A stretch of DNA of 41,646 nucleotides, taken from the IMG/VR virus record IMGVR_UViG_2737471837_000010, positions 1-41,646 of that record. One strand, written 5' to 3'. Position numbers and translations under genes: made by a program. A model generated the notes under the pieces. The model saw nothing but the letters and a program-made list of their open reading frames with translations, was not told where the DNA came from and ran no database searches. The stretch is from a virus. Lineage: Duplodnaviria; Heunggongvirae; Uroviricota; Caudoviricetes. Positions within the stretch are counted from its first letter, which is position 1. Each line of letters starts with the position of its first letter. Below, in pieces: positions 1 through 34,167 of this stretch.

Positions 1-3096
<3,096 letters not shown>

Positions 3097-22788: not shown

Positions 22789-23871
22789 ATGAAAAAATTA
22801 ACAGTGGCAATTTCTGCTGTAGCTGCATCAGTACTGATGGCGATGTCTGCTCAGGCAGCTGAAATTTATAATAAAGACAGTAACAAGCTGGATCTGTACG
22901 GGAAAGTTAATGCTAAGCACTACTTCTCCTCTAATGATGCAGATGATGGTGATACTACTTATGCCCGTCTTGGCTTCAAAGGTGAAACCCAAATCAACGA
23001 TCAACTGACTGGTTTCGGTCAGTGGGAATATGAATTCAAAGGCAACCGCGCTGAATCTCAAGGTTCCTCCAAAGACAAAACCCGTCTTGCATTTGCAGGC
23101 CTGAAATTCGGTGACTACGGCTCAATCGATTACGGCCGTAACTACGGTGTAGCATACGACATCGGTGCGTGGACTGACGTTCTGCCAGAATTCGGTGGCG
23201 ATACCTGGACCCAAACAGATGTGTTCATGACTGGTCGCACCACTGGTGTTGCAACTTATCGTAACAACGACTTCTTTGGTCTGGTTGATGGTCTGAACTT
23301 TGCTGCTCAGTATCAGGGTAAAAATGACCGCACTGACGTAACTGAAGCTAATGGTGATGGTTTCGGTTTCTCCACTACTTATGAGTATGAAGGATTCGGT
23401 GTAGGTGCAACCTATGCTAAATCTGACCGCACTAATAATCAGGTTATCTACGGTAACAACAGCCTGAATGCATCTGGTCAAAATGCTGAAGTATGGGCAG
23501 CTGGTCTGAAATATGATGCGAACAACATCTATCTGGCTACCACCTATTCTGAAACCCAGAACATGACTGTTTTTGGTAATAACCATATTGCCAACAAAGC
23601 ACAAAACTTCGAAGTAGTTGCACAATATCAGTTCGACTTCGGTCTGCGTCCGTCCGTTGCTTACCTGCAATCTAAAGGAAAAGACTTGGGTGCGTGGGGT
23701 GATCAGGACCTGGTTGAATATATTGATGTAGGTGCAACCTATTACTTCAACAAAAATATGTCCACTTTTGTTGATTACAAAATCAACCTGATTGATAAGA
23801 GCGATTTCACGAAAGCATCTGGCGTTGCTACCGATGATATCGTTGCTGTAGGTATGGTTTACCAGTTCTAA
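22789..23871 (+). CDS. Phage-borne general porin (OmpC/OmpF/NmpC family)
   Basis: 360-aa ORF with a signal peptide ([23 protein letters not shown]), alternating beta-strand pattern and a C-terminal aromatic residue (YQF). It is oriented opposite to the flanking Q and S genes. Confidence 0.9.
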
Positions 23872-25315: not shown

Positions 25316-25479
25316 GATTCCTCCTTGCTGCCAGTCGCAACCATTTTTTATCAACCAGGCTGGCGGTATATCCGAGCAGTGTTGGTATTTCGGAAGGCTT
25401 CAGCTCCGGTTTACGCTTACGACGATTTGGTACTCTGTAGATGTGTCCGTTCATGACACGAATAAGCGGTGTAGCCATT
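25309..25479 (-). CDS. ninE: NinE-like small protein
   Basis: Hand-translated 56-codon frame [56 protein letters not shown]; the C-terminal half resembles lambda NinE. Coordinates are approximate to about 1 nt. Confidence 0.6.
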
Positions 25480-25933
25480 ACGCCTCCTGCTTGTCACGGA
25501 GCTGCTGGAACTCGCAGCTCTGCGGAATAGTCAGATGGCAGCCAATATTCACCGCCCAGGCTTCAACCTTACACAGGAAGACATACATCTCTCCGGTATC
25601 AAGATCGGAGGTATGGCGTAACGACTGGATAGTGGTGATATCACCGGTTACGACATCAACCAGGTCTTTGGTTTCATAACCGAGATATGTGTGTTTGAGA
25701 GCATCTTTTACCCAAGCTGGAGTGGCGAACGTTTTACCCCTGCTGATGAGGTATTCACTGATTTCGCTGTACCACATGTGGCTGAGTGCATTCTGGGAAA
25801 GACTGCGTTTCTCACGCCACGGTTTAAGCACCATGCGAAAGCATTTGCCCTCCTCCAGATAAGGCTGGATCTGCCGACCGATAGCGGTGAAGTTACCGCG
25901 ATGCAGTTTGATGCCATCTTGTGGTAGGTTCAC
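25478..25933 (-). CDS. YbcN-like nin-region protein
   Basis: 151-aa ORF at the head of the nin cluster, with the size and position of DLP12 ybcN. The name is from recollection only. Confidence 0.6.
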
Positions 25934-26469
25934 GCTTCACCTCCACAGAGGTCAGACGCTGGATGCAAAAAAACGCAGGTGCATTTCTGCATCTGTGAAT
26001 GGAGAAGAGAGTTTGGATTGTATGTGCGCATAAACGTCCCCGTTTAGCGCAGAAGTCACCGGAGTTGTTCAGGCTCCGATGACATTATTATGGCATTTTG
26101 ATTATTGGATCTCAATTTTGTATTGTTAAATTAGATGATTAGTTTCACAAATTAATAATTTCAGTCTAACATCATGTTAGCAAACAGTAAAAATGATGAA
26201 TGTTGTAACAAAGGGTGTTAAAACATTTAACAAACGTTCATCTCAACCATAAAAACTCAAAAAGAAAACAACCCCAATATAATAAACAGCCCATCAAAAT
26301 AGCAGTTCATAATTTAATCTTGACCATAAGCTTATTCTAAATAGCATGCCCCCTACAAGAAAATGCAGGGAGCTTGCATTGTGATATTATTATTTCATTA
26401 ACATCAAATACGTTAAATATAACTCACGAGTTCAACAACATCTCAATATTGGGAAAAATCACCAAATTA

Positions 26470-26513
26470 AAAAATAACCCCATAAAGAACTCCAAATCAT
26501 TAAAAATTTGGAG
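26470..26513 (-). terminator. Rho-independent terminator on the minus strand just after the HAD gene
   Basis: Hairpin CTCCAAAT-loop-ATTTGGAG followed on the minus strand by a T-rich tract (GGGGTTATTTTTTAATTT). Confidence 0.55.
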
Positions 26514-26524
26514 CCTGCACATGC

Positions 26525-27361
26525 TCATTTCAAATTCAGCAGCTCTGAAAAACTATTAACAACATAATCAGGTCTAACATTGGAGAATGCTTTTCTAAGT
26601 TGTTCCTCCCTCTCCACATCTGCATCTTTCCAGTGTGTGATTTTCACTAAAACTTTCCACAATTCAGGTGAAAACTGTCGCCCATAATTAGCCCAAACAG
26701 CAGTAACCCCCACAGCTTTAGCCATGGACATATCTTTAGTTATAGAATCGCCAATGTATACCGCATCTTCAACACTAACTCCTTCAAAAGAACATATGTG
26801 CTCAAGCAATTTAGGGTTTGGCTTTGACTCAGCGCAGGACAATCTAATTACAAAGTCATCCTTCACAGGTATTTTTTTTGCATTTTTGGGATTCGGGTGG
26901 ATATTATGAATATCTTCTAATGTATAAAGATGATCAAAAAAATCAATTATACCAAGCTTATTCAGACGATATAAAGAATTAAACTCCAAAGCTTCAGTAT
27001 GCCCTACAATTTTTACCCCCCGTTTCTTCAATAATTCCAGCGTTTCTTTTACAGTAGGATACAACATTAATGTCTGGTTACGTTTTGTGCTAAACGCCTG
27101 AAAAACATTAGTAAGTTTTTCCTGCAAAATCGTTTTATCATTAGTTCCAAAGTAAGATATCACAGATGGTAGCTCTAAAGTAGCAAATGGTTTTTCTGAG
27201 TTACCAAACTTCTGATGAATTGTTTTATATTCTGACAGGAGCGTATCCAAAGGCACATCAATATCCTTAGATAATTGCTCTGCCATGGCACTAAATGACT
27301 GGGAGTAAAAACTCACCCAATCGTACAGTGTATTATCCAAATCAGTAATAAGTAATTTCAT
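26525..27361 (-). CDS. HAD-superfamily hydrolase (phosphatase-like)
   Basis: 278-aa ORF with HAD motif I (ITDLDNTLYDW, DxDxT) and a C-terminal YIGDSITKD motif. AT-rich. Its start overlaps the upstream stop (ATGA). Confidence 0.85.
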   Translation of the reverse strand: MKLLITDLDNTLYDWVSFYSQSFSAMAEQLSKDIDVPLDTLLSEYKTIHQKFGNSEKPFATLELPSVISYFGTNDKTILQEKLTNVFQAFSTKRNQTLMLYPTVKETLELLKKRGVKIVGHTEALEFNSLYRLNKLGIIDFFDHLYTLEDIHNIHPNPKNAKKIPVKDDFVIRLSCAESKPNPKLLEHICSFEGVSVEDAVYIGDSITKDMSMAKAVGVTAVWANYGRQFSPELWKVLVKITHWKDADVEREEQLRKAFSNVRPDYVVNSFSELLNLK

Positions 27362-29004
27362 AATAAACCTTCAACAATATAAGTAGCCGCCACTTTTTCT
27401 CCGCTCTGTTTATCAAGCTTGAAAAAATTAAAAGTTAGCTTTTCGCCAGAAAAATCCAGTACGCATGCATAGTTAGCACAATCCTGACTTGGCAATTCCG
27501 AACTAACAACTCCTGAACTTCCCAAAGAAACAATTTGGAATGTATGTTCAGGATTTGAATCCGTCACTGGTTCTAACGGAGATAGTTTTTTTGTTATTGT
27601 AATAAAACTACTTCTGTGCATATGACCATGCAGAATATAATCAACTTTATGCCTTACTACCCAACGTAATAATCGCTCTGCATCTAATGTTACACTATAT
27701 CTTGAATCAAGATAGGCATCTTCAACTTCATTAATAGAAGTTAGGTGATGGTGAAGCATAGCAATTCTTATAACACCTTTCTTTTTGAGTATATCTCCTC
27801 CGCTATCATTCATCCATCCCATAGATTTTGCAACATCACTGAGTTGTTGCTCACCGACAAATCCCATGCCCAAAAATGAATCTTTTACTTGTTGTAATAC
27901 GCATGAGTTCAATGCGGCTATTTCAACAACTTTATGGCCACCTAGTAAAAATTTCCTTCCTTGTGATAAATTTTCTTCAGGTTCCCTTTGAAAAAAATCT
28001 CGATAAAATTTTATATAATTAAGTTTACTTTCGCTATGGTAGTTTTCCGCCAGAATTTTCCATGGTTTATCCGTTACAGGCTTACCAACGATTTTAAAGT
28101 ACTCATCTTTAGAAACCAGACCTACATCGTGATTCCCAGGACAAATAATTATATCATCCGTTGTCAGACTAAGAGAAGAACTAACATCTTTGATAAAATT
28201 CAAAGCTTGCTCGAATCCCTCTTTCTGTGACTGCCACGTCAAATCACCTGAAATAGCCAACCCAGCACATTTACTCCCATTATTATATTTTCCAGCCAAC
28301 TCCACCACTCGAGAGGATAAACATTTTAGCTGATCATTATCTTGTGTCGGAAATGCATGTTTCCCATTTCCGCCATCAAAATGAATATCCGAAAGCCAAA
28401 TTATAAACTCCCCTTTTTTTTGGCTATACTTCCGACTGAAATTATAAGGAACATAATGAGATGCTAATGACTCATGCTGTAAATCTTTATCATTTGCAGG
28501 TCTAATCTTCCAAATAGTTCTATCTTGTTTTTTTAATTCAGCTGAAGAAAAGACAATTTTGTTGAAAAGTTGCTCATCTAAATCTTTATTACCTGCAAAC
28601 AATGCATCCAATGGAATATATGTGAATTTTTTGAGGATATCACAAGCATCAATTTCTATAATCTCAGAAACATTTAACCATCCCAGCAACTCATTCTCAT
28701 TATAATATGCTGGGGTTCTGCAACCATCCTTAGGAGATTGCTTTTTTATATCCCCTAAAGCTGACGAGCAAGTATCCTTTAATACAGCGGTATAAAATTT
28801 AAGCCGCCCTGAATCAAAAAAATATATTTGTTTATTTTTTTCTGCCGCATTTTTTAGTTCCAGTGATGGGAAACGCTCACCAGATTTAGCCCACCACCCC
28901 CACCAAACATTCCCTTCTTGGCGAGCAATGTTATTGTGTTGCTCGATGGTAAATCCTTCACTTTTTCCTAGGTCACGGAACCTAAAAATATAGGTTTCAC
29001 ACAT
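27358..29004 (-). CDS. Two-domain protein: unknown Trp-rich N-terminal domain (~190 aa) plus calcineurin-like metallophosphoesterase domain
   Basis: 548-aa ORF carrying metallophosphoesterase signature motifs in the expected order: LSDIHFD, ISGDLTW, CPGNHD, LHHH and HGHMHR. The N-terminal region (VWWGWWAKSG) has no motif I recognise. AT-rich. Confidence 0.8.
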   Translation of the reverse strand: MCETYIFRFRDLGKSEGFTIEQHNNIARQEGNVWWGWWAKSGERFPSLELKNAAEKNKQIYFFDSGRLKFYTAVLKDTCSSALGDIKKQSPKDGCRTPAYYNENELLGWLNVSEIIEIDACDILKKFTYIPLDALFAGNKDLDEQLFNKIVFSSAELKKQDRTIWKIRPANDKDLQHESLASHYVPYNFSRKYSQKKGEFIIWLSDIHFDGGNGKHAFPTQDNDQLKCLSSRVVELAGKYNNGSKCAGLAISGDLTWQSQKEGFEQALNFIKDVSSSLSLTTDDIIICPGNHDVGLVSKDEYFKIVGKPVTDKPWKILAENYHSESKLNYIKFYRDFFQREPEENLSQGRKFLLGGHKVVEIAALNSCVLQQVKDSFLGMGFVGEQQLSDVAKSMGWMNDSGGDILKKKGVIRIAMLHHHLTSINEVEDAYLDSRYSVTLDAERLLRWVVRHKVDYILHGHMHRSSFITITKKLSPLEPVTDSNPEHTFQIVSLGSSGVVSSELPSQDCANYACVLDFSGEKLTFNFFKLDKQSGEKVAATYIVEGLL

Positions 29005-29039
29005 TTACTTCATCCTCAAATGAAAATTGCTCTACAATT

Positions 29040-29070
29040 CTTTTGTTTTATCAGTAAATTATAGTAAATT
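29040..29070 (-). promoter_or_regulatory. Candidate promoter for the metallophosphoesterase/HAD cassette
   Basis: Perfect TATAAT on the minus strand (plus-strand ATTATA at ~29050..29055) about 45 nt upstream of the ORF start; the -35 is weak. Confidence 0.35.
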
Positions 29071-29127
29071 CAAATAATAAACTCTATCTTTTGAAGTGTG
29101 GGAGAGAAGGAAATCACCTCATTACTT

Positions 29128-29838
29128 TCATCCACTAAACCTTTTCCCTCTACATAATCCATGTTTAGCACGCAATTGTTTAATTTTTTCCAAGCTCTGA
29201 ACACGATTAAGCGGCCTGCCGCCCATGACAGGAAGTTGTTTCACCGGTTCAGGGATCGCTTCACCACGGTTAATTCGCGCGGTCATACAGGACAGTTCAT
29301 CGGCAGCCATGCGCCGTAATTCCGCGTCAGTCAACGCATTGGCCCGCATGTTCTGGTACAGGTTGGTAACCAGCCAGTAGTGCGCGTTTGATTTCCATGG
29401 ATAAGACTCTGCATCTGGATACAGGCCACGCTTCCGACAATACTCATAGACCATATCAACCAGCTCGCTGACGTTTGGCAGCCCGGCGTTAACGGATGCT
29501 TCTTCCCGGCACCAGGCGACAAACTGCCCGGGTGATGGCAGGAATGGTCGATTCTGCCGACGGGCTACGCGCATTCCAGCGTTAACCTGTTCCATCGTGG
29601 TGATCCCATTTTCCCGGAAAGCCAGAACCCACTGGCGGCGGATTTCGTTCAGTTCATTCTGGTCCCGGTTAGCCAGGCTCGCCGGGAAAGTTGCCAGTAA
29701 CTGGCTGAACACACCATTGATAATCTGCGCTACCTGCTGTACCTGCGGCTTTTCGTCGTACTGTTCCGGCATGTTATTGGCGATCCGGCGCATCTGCTCA
29801 CGGTCAAAATTAACCATCTGTGCGGCGATGTTTTTCAT
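29128..29838 (-). CDS. P: Replication protein P (DnaB helicase loader)
   Basis: 236-aa ORF MKNIAAQMVNFDREQMRRIANNMPEQYDEKPQVQQVAQIINGVF..., recognised as lambda P. Confidence 0.95.
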   Translation of the reverse strand: MKNIAAQMVNFDREQMRRIANNMPEQYDEKPQVQQVAQIINGVFSQLLATFPASLANRDQNELNEIRRQWVLAFRENGITTMEQVNAGMRVARRQNRPFLPSPGQFVAWCREEASVNAGLPNVSELVDMVYEYCRKRGLYPDAESYPWKSNAHYWLVTNLYQNMRANALTDAELRRMAADELSCMTARINRGEAIPEPVKQLPVMGGRPLNRVQSLEKIKQLRAKHGLCRGKRFSG

Positions 29839-30807
29839 AGCTCCACCCCGTAAATCCAGTCAGTGTTCGTCAGGTCGAGTTTTGGTTTTCCGGCTGTCAC
29901 GCCAGCCTGTTGCTTGTTACGGTTGATTTCGAGCTGGGTCCACTTGTCGCGTAGTTTGGCCGGACTCAGCACGTTACCGGACCAGAAGTTGTCCTGGCAG
30001 GCCCAGCGGAACAGCACGCACATGTCGCGGTGGTTACGTCCGTCACGTTCACGCATCAGGCGGATATCGTTAGCCCACCCTGCAAAATTCGGTTTTCTGG
30101 CTGATGGCGCGATGGTCTTCACCATGTCAAACATCCACTCTGCGGCAGTCAGGTCTTCTGCTGTCCCCCACTTGCTGCCGCTCTGAATCGCAGCATCCGG
30201 TTTCACCACAGAAAGGGCATTTTCTGGCTGGTCAGAGGATTCGTCAGAATTCTCGGACGAAAAAGGTTTTATATTGTCTTTTGTTAGTTTGTCTTTTGTG
30301 TTTACCTGATTCGGGTAAGTGCCTTTACCTGATTTGGGTAAACTTTTCTTACCTGATTCAGGTAAATTTACCTCTTTCAGGTAAACTTTTCTTACCTGAT
30401 TCAGGTAAATTTACCTCTTTCAGGTAAACTTTATTTTTCTTACCTGATTCGGGTAATGTTGACCATTCACTGACCACATTATTGATGCCGATATTCCGCC
30501 CGCTCTGAATAAGAATCCCACGCTTTACCAGAACACTTTTTGCAGCAGAACACTTGTGCGGCAATATCCCGGTTAATTCGGAAAGTTGCTCGTTGCTAAC
30601 CCAATCCAGTTTTTTATTAAAGCCATATGTTTTGCGCATGACAGCCAGAAAGACCAGAAGCTGGTGCTGTGTTAATCCGGCCAGCATCACAGCTTCCAGC
30701 AACTCATTTGCAATGCGCGTATAACCATCATCGAGATCTGCCACGCGCGGCTCCTTTTGTGCCGCATCCGGCACTGGAAAATTGAATATCTCAGCAGTGT
30801 TTGCCAT
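29835..30807 (-). pseudogene. O: Replication initiator O, split by a frameshift inside the iteron region
   Basis: The N-terminal frame (from MANTAEIFNF) stops at 30358. The C-terminal frame, open from ~30410 and ending ...TNTDWIYGVEL, is shifted by one nucleotide. Both frames translate the same LPESGKKSLP from repeated DNA. Confidence 0.7.
30302..30456. repeat. Replication origin iterons: seven ~17-bp TTACCTGATTC(G/A)GGTAA-type repeats, including a 43-bp tandem duplication
   Basis: Copies at ~30302, 30326, 30349, 30368, 30392, 30411 and 30440. Segment 30349..30391 is repeated almost exactly at 30392..30434. Each iteron is an inverted repeat TTACC...GGTAA. Confidence 0.85.
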
Positions 30808-30893
30808 AATTCCTCCCGCAATGAGTGTGTTACGATTTGCACCTGAAAGTCGGTTCTGTTCGCGCAGACCGGCTTTCGCCATTTCCGAACCTG

Positions 30894-31439
30894 TCATATT
30901 GCCCCCAGCATGGTGGTGACCATCGCCATCAGTGGACCAGCCAGATCCGGGTCCACACGAAACATCGACACAATGCCTTCACTCATCTCCTTCAGTTTCT
31001 GGTGGCGTGGTGCGTTGAGAATGACAGCCTGTTTTGCCTCACTGAGTTCCTTTTCCATTTCAGCCAGCCGAGCCATGAAGCTATCCTGCTCAACCAGGTG
31101 GCCGCGATATTCCAGCGGTAGTACCGCCAGAATTGCCGGGGTCAGTTCACGCACGTTATTTCGGTATTTTTCAGAATCGAATTTGTTATCGAGGAAGCGG
31201 AACAGCTTCTGGCGTGCACGGCTGACATCATCAGGGAAATCGATGGTGCCGCCGCCCTGCTCCCGATACTCATTCACAATGAGTGCGGCAACAACATCCT
31301 GATTATCTGCAGCCGACCAGGCGCGGACGGCATCACGGATTTTTTCGTGGCCTGGAGCTTGTTTTGTTTGAGAACGATTTATCACCGCAGTCGGGCTAAA
31401 TCCGCTAGTCTGTTGGTATGTAAGTGGTTGCATAGTCAT
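30894..31439 (-). CDS. YdaT-like protein in the cII position
   Basis: 181-aa ORF downstream of the cro-like gene; segments EYREQGGGT and LTPAILAVLPLEYRGHL resemble my recollection of Rac prophage YdaT. No clear helix-turn-helix. Confidence 0.55.
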   Translation of the reverse strand: MTMQPLTYQQTSGFSPTAVINRSQTKQAPGHEKIRDAVRAWSAADNQDVVAALIVNEYREQGGGTIDFPDDVSRARQKLFRFLDNKFDSEKYRNNVRELTPAILAVLPLEYRGHLVEQDSFMARLAEMEKELSEAKQAVILNAPRHQKLKEMSEGIVSMFRVDPDLAGPLMAMVTTMLGAI

Positions 31440-32616: not shown

Positions 32617-33639
32617 ATGAAAGATAACAGACAAAAAGTCGTTCATTATAAAAAAGCAGTAATCCCACACAGCAAATCATCATTACAAAACATACTACTT
32701 AGTATTATAGGTGAGGGCGGCGTTGCAGAAAAAGTACTTAGTAGACAAGAAAAAATAACACCTTCAGATGAAAATTCGGGGTATCGTTTCTTAAATAAAA
32801 GCGACACATACAAAACTATACTTTTTGGGCAACTGGTTTTATTTGAAAAAGACAAAAGCCAGTCTCTATTAGAGCTTAGTGATAATGTTAAATTTTATGA
32901 CATTAACTCCATCACGTCTAATGATATAATTATTGATGGAGATAAACGTAGTGACAAAAAAAGAGAGTTTGTAGATTCAATTTTATATTTTGGTGTACTA
33001 AACAACCATGTCATGATCGTTCAATCCACATCGCTTCGAGCAAGGGAGCTTGAGGCGCATTTGAATTGGCTAATTAATACATTCACAGATGAAAAAGAAT
33101 CTGTGTTAATGCTTCAAGATAAGCCATCCGAAGAAACGATGAAAAAAATGGAGAAAGCACCAGCCAAGAGCATAAAAATTGGTGGATTACCCATTACTTC
33201 AGAAGTTAAAAATTCAGAGAACCAAACACCCTCCTTTTCAAATGGTTCGGTGAAGACAATAAAATACCGCCCAATAGGGAAAGGAGGTGCGCTACTAAAA
33301 GCATTTTTTGGCGATAACTGGGCAAATGATATAAACATTAAAGATTCATTAGATGAGGCCAATTTACAAGTAAGCCTCGAGATTACATACTTCAGAAAAA
33401 CAAATGATAGCGGTCAAGCTGTTATAGACAGTATTGCTACCTCACTACGACATCTAGATGAGGATGATATTAGCATCAAACTTCAAGGCGGTGGGGAAAT
33501 AACGGGAAAAGAGATAAAATTATCCGGAAAAATTAGCGTTGAACATAACAATGGCATTATTGATGAAAATGATTTATTCTTAAAAATGCATAAGTGGCTG
33601 TTCTCAAAACTTGATGCCGGAGAATTGGTTGCAAAATAA
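32617..33639 (+). CDS. Unknown 340-aa soluble protein in the rexA position
   Basis: Long AT-rich ORF immediately downstream of cI on the same strand; Lys/Asp/Glu-rich with no catalytic motif I recognise. Confidence 0.75.
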   Translation: MKDNRQKVVHYKKAVIPHSKSSLQNILLSIIGEGGVAEKVLSRQEKITPSDENSGYRFLNKSDTYKTILFGQLVLFEKDKSQSLLELSDNVKFYDINSITSNDIIIDGDKRSDKKREFVDSILYFGVLNNHVMIVQSTSLRARELEAHLNWLINTFTDEKESVLMLQDKPSEETMKKMEKAPAKSIKIGGLPITSEVKNSENQTPSFSNGSVKTIKYRPIGKGGALLKAFFGDNWANDINIKDSLDEANLQVSLEITYFRKTNDSGQAVIDSIATSLRHLDEDDISIKLQGGGEITGKEIKLSGKISVEHNNGIIDENDLFLKMHKWLFSKLDAGELVAK

Positions 33640-33660: not shown

Positions 33661-34167
33661 ATGAAATCGAACATCATCCACCTTATTGGTATGTTGGTCT
33701 TCTATGTTGCTGGTTACTTTTTGTTCAAGTCAGCATTGGGCTATATTACACCGGGTGTTGTCCTAACAGCTCCGTGGGCTGTGGTTGGACTCATGCAATT
33801 GCCATTATCATATTGTATACAAGCCATTTTTAAGGCAAATGAGGCCAATGACCACTCGTCTTTAACCCCTAGTGAGGTTAGGCGATTAGTGCCAATAGTC
33901 AAATCCAAGAGACTGAAATTGGTTTTATTATTAGCTTTCTATGTATTTTCAACTTTGTTTGTAATCTTGGGGTTAATAGCAAGCACAAATGATCAAGCCC
34001 TACTCTTCAGGGTCTTAAAAATTTCAGGTGGATTACTCTTTATTTCTCTCTATACCAGTGTATTCGTTCATAAAATAATGGTTGAGCTTCAAGAGTTTAA
34101 AGCGTTATTAAACCGAAGAGAATCAGAGAAGAAGGAAAGAGAGTCACTCCTTGATAGATTAAAATGA
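33661..34167 (+). CDS. Unknown 168-aa polytopic membrane protein (four predicted TM helices) in the rexB position
   Basis: Strong AGGAGGG ribosome-binding site. Four hydrophobic segments (IIHLIGMLVFYVAGYFLF, VVLTAPWAVVGLMQLPLSYCIQAIF, LKLVLLLAFYVFSTLFVILGLIAS, GGLLFISLYTSVFVHKIM) and a charged C-terminal tail. Confidence 0.8.
   Translation: MKSNIIHLIGMLVFYVAGYFLFKSALGYITPGVVLTAPWAVVGLMQLPLSYCIQAIFKANEANDHSSLTPSEVRRLVPIVKSKRLKLVLLLAFYVFSTLFVILGLIASTNDQALLFRVLKISGGLLFISLYTSVFVHKIMVELQEFKALLNRRESEKKERESLLDRLK

Follow-up and report, generated by a model that had tools for sequence, protein, structure and literature searches.

The two-gene cassette that directly follows the replication gene P in a lambda/DLP12-like prophage is, with high confidence, a type I Metis abortive-infection system (MisA-MisB, equivalent to DS-9) carried as a moron. 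The prophage was analysed in a stretch of 41,646 nucleotides, here called the window, which is IMG/VR record IMGVR_UViG_2737471837_000010. The system itself is already known. It has been published as Metis (Osterman et al., bioRxiv 10.1101/2025.11.05.686725) and as DS-9 (DefensePredictor, Science 2026), has been characterised biochemically, is represented in NCBIfam by an equivalog and carries gene names in RefSeq, so that the novelty of the pair implied by the preliminary description does not hold. The additions made here are the cargo slot of the prophage between P and ninB, the borders of the cassette, and its conserved leader and terminator hairpin.

The MisA and MisB proteins

The upstream gene of the pair encodes MisA, a protein of 548 amino acids that passes the NCBIfam equivalog NF053862, 'DS9_1 anti-phage phosphoesterase', with 529 bits against a cut-off of 420. 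The match joins residues 8-508 of MisA to positions 1-484 of the 486 positions of the profile. The N-terminal domain, which had been taken as unrecognised, is the Pua-like family of Pfam (PF24405), matched over the full profile length with an E-value of 7.1e-43. The calcineurin-like metallophosphoesterase core that had been assigned to this protein was found as Metallophos PF00149 (E 2.9e-12), and its metal-binding motifs are DIH (residues 206-208), GD (253-254), GNHD (290-293) and GHMH (460-463).

The residues on which the activity of homologues depends are retained in the window protein. In MisA of Metis 401675, the PUA-like domain forms the pocket that binds N6-methyl-dAMP (m6dAMP), mutation of R9 and W39 abolished defence, and the metallophosphatase residues are D251, N288, H289 and H467 (bioRxiv 10.1101/2025.11.05.686725). 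R9 and W39 align with R8 and W38 of the window MisA, and D251, N288 and H289 correspond, by motif, to D254, N291 and H292. In DS-9A the substitutions D207A and N292A each abolished defence (DefensePredictor, Science 2026), and the two positions align with D206 and N291. All mutated residues that could be mapped are conserved, H467 of MisA 401675 lying outside that mapping.

Structural comparison contributed little. A sequence search of the PDB with MisA gave only a weak metallophosphatase match (2xmo, E 2e-4), and residues 1-189 searched on their own gave chance matches only; no solved Metis structure was found in these searches. Structure prediction had been proposed for the N-terminal region, but the single-sequence AlphaFold2 model of MisA is unusable, with a mean pLDDT of 35.9 and a pTM of 0.30.

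The partner, MisB, is a HAD hydrolase as previously described, and the Pfam families HAD_2 and Hydrolase extend across all of its 278 amino acids. The PADLOC model PDLC03008 'Hydrolase' matches it over the full length at 4.2e-57, and DefenseFinder labels the DS-9B homologue Rst_Hydrolase-Tm__Hydrolase. Motif I reads DLDNT, in which D7 and D9 match the catalytic D8 and D10 of MisB 401675; the two proteins are identical at 76 of 132 positions of the part compared. MisB has been shown to be an m6dAMP 5'-nucleotidase, which dephosphorylates basal m6dAMP and thereby prevents the autotoxicity of MisA (bioRxiv 10.1101/2025.11.05.686725).

Both genes are annotated as misA and misB in the RefSeq locus NZ_OZ547246.1, which is 99.9% identical to that of the window. 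The MisB proteins of the two loci are identical, and the MisA proteins differ by C95R and D143N, the window having C95 and D143.

Layout and borders of the cassette

In the open reading frame list of the window, both genes are found on the minus strand, at the place indicated by the preliminary description (Table 1). The reported overlap of the HAD gene with the upstream stop is borne out: the ATG of misB (27361..27359) and the TGA of misA (27360..27358) share four nucleotides, ATGA, and the junction reads ...TTATGAAA... on the minus strand.

Table 1. Features of the Metis cassette and its surroundings, in positions of the window
Feature	Position	Strand	Description or basis
misA	27358..29004	-	Predicted effector and sensor of type I Metis; PUA-like domain and calcineurin-like metallophosphatase
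PUA-like sensor domain of MisA (residues 5-178)	28471..28992	-	Pfam PF24405
Calcineurin-like metallophosphatase domain of MisA (residues 201-464)	27613..28404	-	Pfam PF00149
misB, HAD phosphatase	26525..27361	-	Pfam HAD_2, Hydrolase; PADLOC PDLC03008
Cassette leader	29005..29127	-	About 120 nt kept in DS-9-type loci elsewhere
Hairpin and U-rich run after misB stop	26486..26516	-	Fold energy; kept in DS-9-type loci
AT-rich non-coding tail between cassette and prophage backbone	26108..26485	-	Backbone homology ends at about 26107
Replication gene similar to lambda P, bounding the cargo slot upstream	29128..29838	-	RefSeq 'replication protein P' in identical loci; Pfam Phage_lambda_P in identical contexts
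Gene similar to ybcN/ninB, bounding the cargo slot downstream after the 33-aa ORF	25478..25933	-	RefSeq

The cassette is a self-contained, AT-rich unit of 2.6 kb, whose point of insertion coincides with the stop codon of P. Downstream of it follow, in the RefSeq annotation of identical loci, a ylcH-like 33-aa open reading frame, ybcN/ninB, ninE, ybcO, rusA, ylcG and quuD. Between P and the 33-aa open reading frame, nothing beyond misA and misB is called or annotated, and ren is absent from the prophage both in the open reading frame list and in the RefSeq annotation of identical loci. The GC content is 0.348 in the block 26108..29127 and 0.515 in the rest of the window, which confirms that the pair is AT-rich. 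The backbone homology common to about 2,800 E. coli genomes ends near 26107, and the remainder is covered by 12 Metis prophages only. The GC content, the break of the backbone, and the conserved leader and hairpin support the earlier view of a horizontally acquired two-gene cassette in the ren slot of lambda. The O gene of the prophage contains a frameshifting duplication of 43 bp, and both mis reading frames are intact; the prophage of the window may be decaying.

The leader is conserved back to the stop codon of P in an alignment of the window with E. coli H15, a Buttiauxella MAG and a second MAG. It contains a GAGGA ribosome-binding site at 29017..29013 and a perfect TATAAT at 29063..29058 on the minus strand, 53 nt upstream of the misA start codon; in the other three sequences the hexamer is TATGAT. 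Of the candidate promoter noted earlier, the perfect TATAAT is confirmed, but the best -35 element has three of six matches, as judged by eye, and in a consensus scan of 25900..29400 promoter- and terminator-like sites were no commoner than in shuffled sequence. The same scan missed both this TATAAT and the hairpin after misB.

The 61-nt stretch 26470..26530, which includes the hairpin and the U-rich run after the misB stop, has a folding energy of -17.6 kcal/mol (z = -3.2). DS-9-type loci retain this hairpin; by eye, one C-G pair is replaced there by T-A on both sides. The hairpin is probably an intrinsic terminator and the downstream border of the shared cassette. The non-coding tail of 377 nt beyond it contains a further strong hairpin at 26348..26373 that has no good U tract (51-nt stretch 26335..26385, -22.6 kcal/mol, z -5.0). 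The tail had no match in phage records and no Rfam family, the scan of 25900..29200 yielding one miRNA match at chance level.

Proposed mode of action and alternative readings

The mechanism is taken from published near-identical and homologous alleles and is carried to the window by homology. The activation by m6dAMP, the cleavage of NAD+ to NMN and AMP, and a Dam-dependent abortive defence against phages that break down host DNA are known for the 401675, 402837, E308 and DS-9 alleles. MisA of Metis 402837 has been purified and is an NAD+ diphosphatase that is switched on specifically by m6dAMP and cleaves NAD+ and not ATP (bioRxiv 10.1101/2025.11.05.686725), and DS-9A together with DS-9B defended MG1655 (DefensePredictor, Science 2026). 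A lysogen would make both MisA and MisB. Traces of m6dAMP would arise from Dam-methylated DNA during repair, and MisB, a Mg2+-dependent HAD phosphatase, would remove their phosphate and so keep MisA off. When a lytic phage such as T2, T4, T5, T6 or T7 breaks the host chromosome down to mononucleotides, m6dAMP would rise about 100-fold and outrun MisB. Its binding to the N-terminal PUA-like pocket of MisA would then activate the C-terminal calcineurin-like metallophosphatase, which would split NAD+ into NMN and AMP. The collapse of NAD+ would stop phage production and the infected cell would die.

The allele of the window, with C95 and D143, is presumably expressed and active. Since lambdoid phages leave host DNA undegraded, Metis would probably not harm the temperate carrier phage. 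One of the roles that had been suggested for the pair, defence by depletion of a nucleotide and removal of a nucleotide signal, agrees with the published near-identical and approximately 80% identical alleles, in which MisA depletes NAD+ in response to m6dAMP and MisB dephosphorylates m6dAMP.

A system of the same architecture could sense another modified nucleotide or attack a substrate other than NAD+. The authors of Metis expect variants for other modified bases and describe putative type III systems associated with methylases, and some NTPs and dNTPs were likewise depleted in Metis cells after infection (bioRxiv 10.1101/2025.11.05.686725). The PUA-like domain varies strongly among MisA alleles, and in this region the window protein is identical to MisA 401675 at 53 of 123 positions. 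However, its first 133 residues differ at one position from the m6dAMP-specific, NAD+-cleaving MisA of 402837, and no methylase gene accompanies the cassette in the RefSeq annotation of identical loci, which makes a different trigger or target unlikely.

The preliminary description had also envisaged counter-defence, in which the pair would serve the phage in lytic growth by degrading immune second messengers or by repairing cleaved tRNA or DNA ends. The position in the early-right operon would permit expression at that stage, and SMPDL3A-related metallophosphatases can cleave cyclic dinucleotides (DefensePredictor, Science 2026). Such a role is nevertheless very improbable: the homologues protect cells from phage and act as abortive infection, the approximately 80% identical allele belongs to a chromosomal defence island or is carried by plasmids rather than phages, and a search of 50,697 phage genomes turned up a single distant relative (30%). 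The kinase or ligase partner present in end-healing systems is missing as well. Action on phosphorylated nucleic-acid ends finds no support either. That the genes are a housekeeping nucleotidase or phosphoglycolate-phosphatase pair, carried passively and without a role in phage conflict, is scarcely credible. MisB does match phosphoglycolate phosphatase and pyrimidine nucleotidase models weakly, but all of these matches fall far short of the thresholds (62 bits where 225 are needed, for example); matches to the defence models, by contrast, run over the full length. The two genes are also AT-rich and rare, and they occur in mobile contexts only.

The preliminary description, made from sequence alone, had flagged a genuine defence system, and the result is a useful positive control. 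Metis senses a by-product of the destruction of the host genome, m6dAMP, rather than a molecule of the phage, and its effector splits NAD+ in an unusual manner, to NMN and AMP; both properties are already published. The window shows a 402837-type allele in a natural setting, the variable cargo slot of a lambdoid prophage, which is of modest value. Such a setting is in keeping with the notion that temperate phages equip their hosts to fight lytic rivals by means of a weapon harmless to the temperate phages themselves.

Distribution and relation to known systems

The system is rare and was found in 35 of 5,426 complete E. coli genomes. The allele of the window occurs only as cargo between P and ninB/ybcN of lambda/DLP12-like prophages, in all 12 complete genomes that have it and in all eight other assembly contexts listed for it. 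In four sampled loci of related prophages, the same slot holds ren or other cargo (DUF4145, HEPN or an AAA ATPase pair). Related loci among GTDB genomes number two, both DS-9-type with 80% identity and both in MAGs, one of Buttiauxella and one labelled Collinsella. It may be proposed, tentatively and with the four sampled loci as the basis, that the P-ninB slot is a general, uncatalogued defence hotspot of lambdoid prophages, that temperate phages are favoured carriers of Metis and that the position in the pR operon may add expression by read-through at induction, although this combination is rather doubtful. Temperate phages would be favoured because, without degradation of host DNA, they would never trigger Metis.

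Several systems resemble the cassette in part. Lambda ren occupies the same position directly after P but has no sequence relationship to it. DS-8, a single metallophosphatase-NACHT protein, shares a related calcineurin-like domain (NF053861, E 1.5e-14, MisA residues 204-472) but has neither the PUA-like sensor nor the HAD partner. Assignment to DS-8 was ruled out, as NF053861 reaches 52.7 bits against a cut-off of 790, in the phosphatase domain only, and Pfam finds no NACHT domain. Type II Metis (MisB-MisC) is related to the hydrolase-plus-transmembrane system Rst_Hydrolase-Tm of DefenseFinder and PADLOC, and its MisB from Phyllobacterium is identical to that of the window at 52 of 131 positions of the compared part. 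Its effector is the three-helix membrane protein MisC, whereas the effector of the window would be a soluble NAD+ diphosphatase, MisA. Type II was also ruled out: the partner of misB encodes MisA, whose 548 amino acids include PUA-like and metallophosphatase domains, and no gene for MisC is called or annotated between P and the 33-aa open reading frame.

The closest characterised system is Metis 402837, which has the same two genes in the same order, the same PUA-like and metallophosphatase architecture and the overlapping HAD partner. Over the first 399 nt of the synthesized 402837 misA, the part compared, which covers most of the PUA-like domain (133 residues), 397 of 399 nucleotides and 132 of 133 amino acids are identical to the window, the single substitution being R95 in place of C95. 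Identity of the window MisA to the purified 402837 protein presumably extends over the full length. The paper on Metis 402837 does not discuss a prophage location, and the word 'prophage' occurs in it zero times (bioRxiv 10.1101/2025.11.05.686725).

DS-9 (WP_000665639.1 and WP_000770925.1), which matches the E308 Metis allele over the first 132 residues compared, has amino acid identities of 79.7% (DS-9A) and 78.1% (DS-9B) to MisA and MisB of the window. The homology extends over the full length with one indel of a single residue, and D207 and N292 are kept as D206 and N291. DS-9-type copies are found outside the lambdoid P-ninB slot, beside Hachiman and a restriction enzyme in a chromosomal island of E. 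coli H15 and also on conjugative plasmids of Klebsiella, Enterobacter and E. coli. These loci carry the same conserved leader and terminator hairpin as the cassette of the window.

The misA-misB pair and its prophage

The pair lies in a lambda/DLP12-like prophage integrated beside ybhC. Identical loci are annotated in RefSeq with this transcription order on the minus strand: an HTH gene in the cro position, YdaT, O, P, misA, misB, a 33-aa ORF, ybcN (ninB), ninE, ybcO, rusA, ylcG and quuD. The repressor gene is on the opposite strand, upstream of this row; after the row come an OmpC-like porin gene, which shares the repressor's strand, and then lysis, head and tail genes. The prophage has no ren gene. 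A gap of 123 nt separates the P stop from the misA ORF, which overlaps misB by four bases, ATGA. The GC content of the block 26108..29127 is 34.8%, against 51.5% in the remaining window. ORFs, GC content and gene order confirm in all material respects the preliminary description of an AT-rich pair with overlapping ORFs, located after P in the ren slot.

The 548-aa protein scores 529 bits (cut-off 420), over nearly the full span, to the curated NCBIfam equivalog NF053862, "DS9_1_antiphage, anti-phage phosphoesterase". Its Trp-rich N-terminal domain, at first taken to be unrecognised, is a PUA-like domain catalogued in Pfam. Pfam places the 278-aa protein among the HAD-IA hydrolases, and the PADLOC defence model PDLC03008, "Hydrolase", matches it over its full length (4e-57). 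RefSeq NZ_OZ547246.1 contains a locus 99.9% identical to this one, in which the two genes already bear the names misA ("anti-phage phosphoesterase") and misB.

Features of the window, in window coordinates or protein residues
Feature	Position	Strand	Detail
564-aa ORF	469..2163	+	near prophage tail end
OmpC/NmpC-like porin gene	22789..23871	+	Porin_1, E 3e-153
AT-rich non-coding tail, 377 nt	26108..26484		between post-misB hairpin and prophage backbone
Strong hairpin in 377-nt tail	26348..26373		enclosing 51-nt stretch -22.6 kcal/mol, z -5.0
Post-misB hairpin and U-rich run	26486..26516		61-nt stretch around hairpin -17.6 kcal/mol, z = -3.2
misB, 278-aa ORF	26525..27361	minus	ORF call
misA, 548-aa ORF	27358..29004	minus	ORF call
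PF24405 "Pua-like"	MisA residues 5-178		Pfam, E 7e-43
PF00149 Metallophos	MisA residues 201-464		Pfam
-10-like hexamer in leader	29063..29058		TATAAT
Perfect 43-bp tandem duplication, 2.2 copies	30337..30432		within 29835..30897 (minus)
Gene of 340-aa protein	32617..33639	+	
Gene of 168-aa protein	33661..34167	+	

Several other features of the prophage were recorded. The tandem duplication affects the O-like replication gene in its iteron/ori segment. It shifts the frame and splits the gene into two ORFs (179 aa and 124 aa); related prophages have the gene intact, at 1020 nt. The set of complete E. coli genomes (5,426) contains no case of the duplication, which reflects either a replication-defective prophage or an assembly artefact. 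An AT-rich gene pair occupies the lambda rexA/rexB position, immediately downstream of the cI-like repressor; its smaller product is hydrophobic-looking by eye. Neither protein has a match in Pfam, PADLOC or NCBIfam; they fall in the PHROG families phrog_3482 and phrog_16807, of unknown function. The pair is a candidate for an uncharacterised exclusion or defence moron. In sister prophages a 353-aa protein and an ASCH-domain protein take this position instead. The 564-aa ORF is without a Pfam or PHROG match. The porin gene has the Q antiterminator on one side and the lysis genes on the other, a position shared with DLP12.

Borders, distribution and the cargo slot

Homology to DS-9-type loci (DS-9 being another name of the Metis system) from quite different contexts begins practically at the stop codon of P (about 29127) and stops at the hairpin just 3' of the misB stop. 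It includes a conserved leader of ~120 nt with a GAGGA ribosome-binding site and the -10-like hexamer, which is TATGAT in the other loci. The hairpin stem is kept in these loci, with one pair changed on both sides. Homology from leader to hairpin in such different contexts supports the cassette being a self-contained 2.6-kb unit, and the borders originally proposed come near to it. Of the promoter proposed there, the TATAAT hexamer exists and belongs to the conserved leader, but the -35 is poor, so that it is a candidate only; consensus scans gave no enrichment over shuffles. The 377-nt tail occurs, among complete E. coli genomes, only in the 12 Metis-carrying prophages, and searches of phage records and Rfam gave no match to it.

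The misA-misB pair is present in 35 of the 5,426 complete genomes of E. coli. The window-type allele (at least 99% identity) is found in 12 records, with all 12 matches extending into the adjoining P gene, and the DS-9 type, roughly 80% identical, in 25. The exact MisA protein is present in many other assemblies, and the arrangement P-misA-misB-ninB is found in all eight assembly contexts shown, even with a different immunity region. In E. coli H15 the DS-9 type adjoins Hachiman and a restriction endonuclease; it is also borne by Klebsiella, Enterobacter and E. coli plasmids, mostly conjugative. A search of 50,697 phage genomes yielded no DNA match and a lone protein relative, 30% identical.

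The cargo slot, which separates P from the 33-aa ORF preceding ybcN and corresponds to 26108..29127 of the window, varies in content among four related prophage loci. It holds ren, DUF4145 and a pol III theta pseudogene in one; a HEPN-domain protein and a P22AR-domain protein in another; ren and two hypothetical proteins in a third; and an AAA ATPase with a hypothetical protein in the last. The slot may be a defence hotspot.

Relation to the Metis system

DS-9, a metallophosphatase and HAD operon, was validated by DefensePredictor, and defence was lost with D207A and N292A of DS-9A (Science 2026, PMC13092281). The name Metis and the logic of the system come from Osterman et al. (bioRxiv 10.1101/2025.11.05.686725). 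In their work, the E. coli alleles 401675, 402837 and E308 act by abortive infection against T2, T4, T5, T6 and T7; T4 and T6 escapers carry denA mutations, and host Dam is needed. Purified 402837 MisA is an NAD+ diphosphatase, yielding NMN and AMP, and is activated specifically by N6-methyl-dAMP (m6dAMP), which modelling places in the PUA-like pocket. MisB removes the phosphate of m6dAMP to give m6dA; defence does not need MisB, yet it guards against MisA toxicity. Temperate phages are, according to the authors, not acted on.

Comparison with the three alleles used the opening 399 nt of their synthesized genes, as printed in the preprint supplement. Over this part, window misA agrees with 402837 in 397/399 nt and 132/133 aa, the sole difference being C95 in the window against R95. 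Agreement with E308 is 98/132 aa and with 401675 53/123 aa. Full-length identity is 79.7% to DS-9A (E. coli H15 locus, WP_000665639.1), which is of the E308 type judged by its N-terminus, and 78.1% between MisB and DS-9B (WP_000770925.1). All functionally tested residues that could be mapped are conserved, 401675 H467 lying outside exact mapping: in MisA, R8 and W38 match 401675 R9 and W39, and D206 and N291 match DS-9A D207 and N292; in MisB, D7 and D9 match the published D8 and D10. The GD, GNHD and GHMH motifs are kept.

The pair is very probably a functional type I Metis system working as published. Its identity, domain architecture, conserved residues and context are shown by the analysis; that the window allele is active we infer. 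The early guess of a defence role pointed in the right direction; its alternative, a counter-defence or end-healing pair, is unlikely, as is a housekeeping pair, and both proteins match models built for defence. It is likewise unlikely that the pair is a Metis variant whose ligand or substrate differs; the near-identity to 402837 speaks against this reading, the distance to 401675 for it. In a Metis system of the published kind, basal m6dAMP would be buffered by MisB. Phage-driven chromosome degradation would cause a surge of m6dAMP, switching on MisA via the PUA-like domain, and active MisA would convert NAD+ to NMN and AMP, resulting in abortion of the infection. The lambdoid carrier would be intrinsically safe from its own cargo, given the authors' statement on temperate phages. 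The residual interest of the window is small and lies in the prophage cargo-slot context; the system itself is already known, with a characterised mechanism, an NCBIfam model and RefSeq names.
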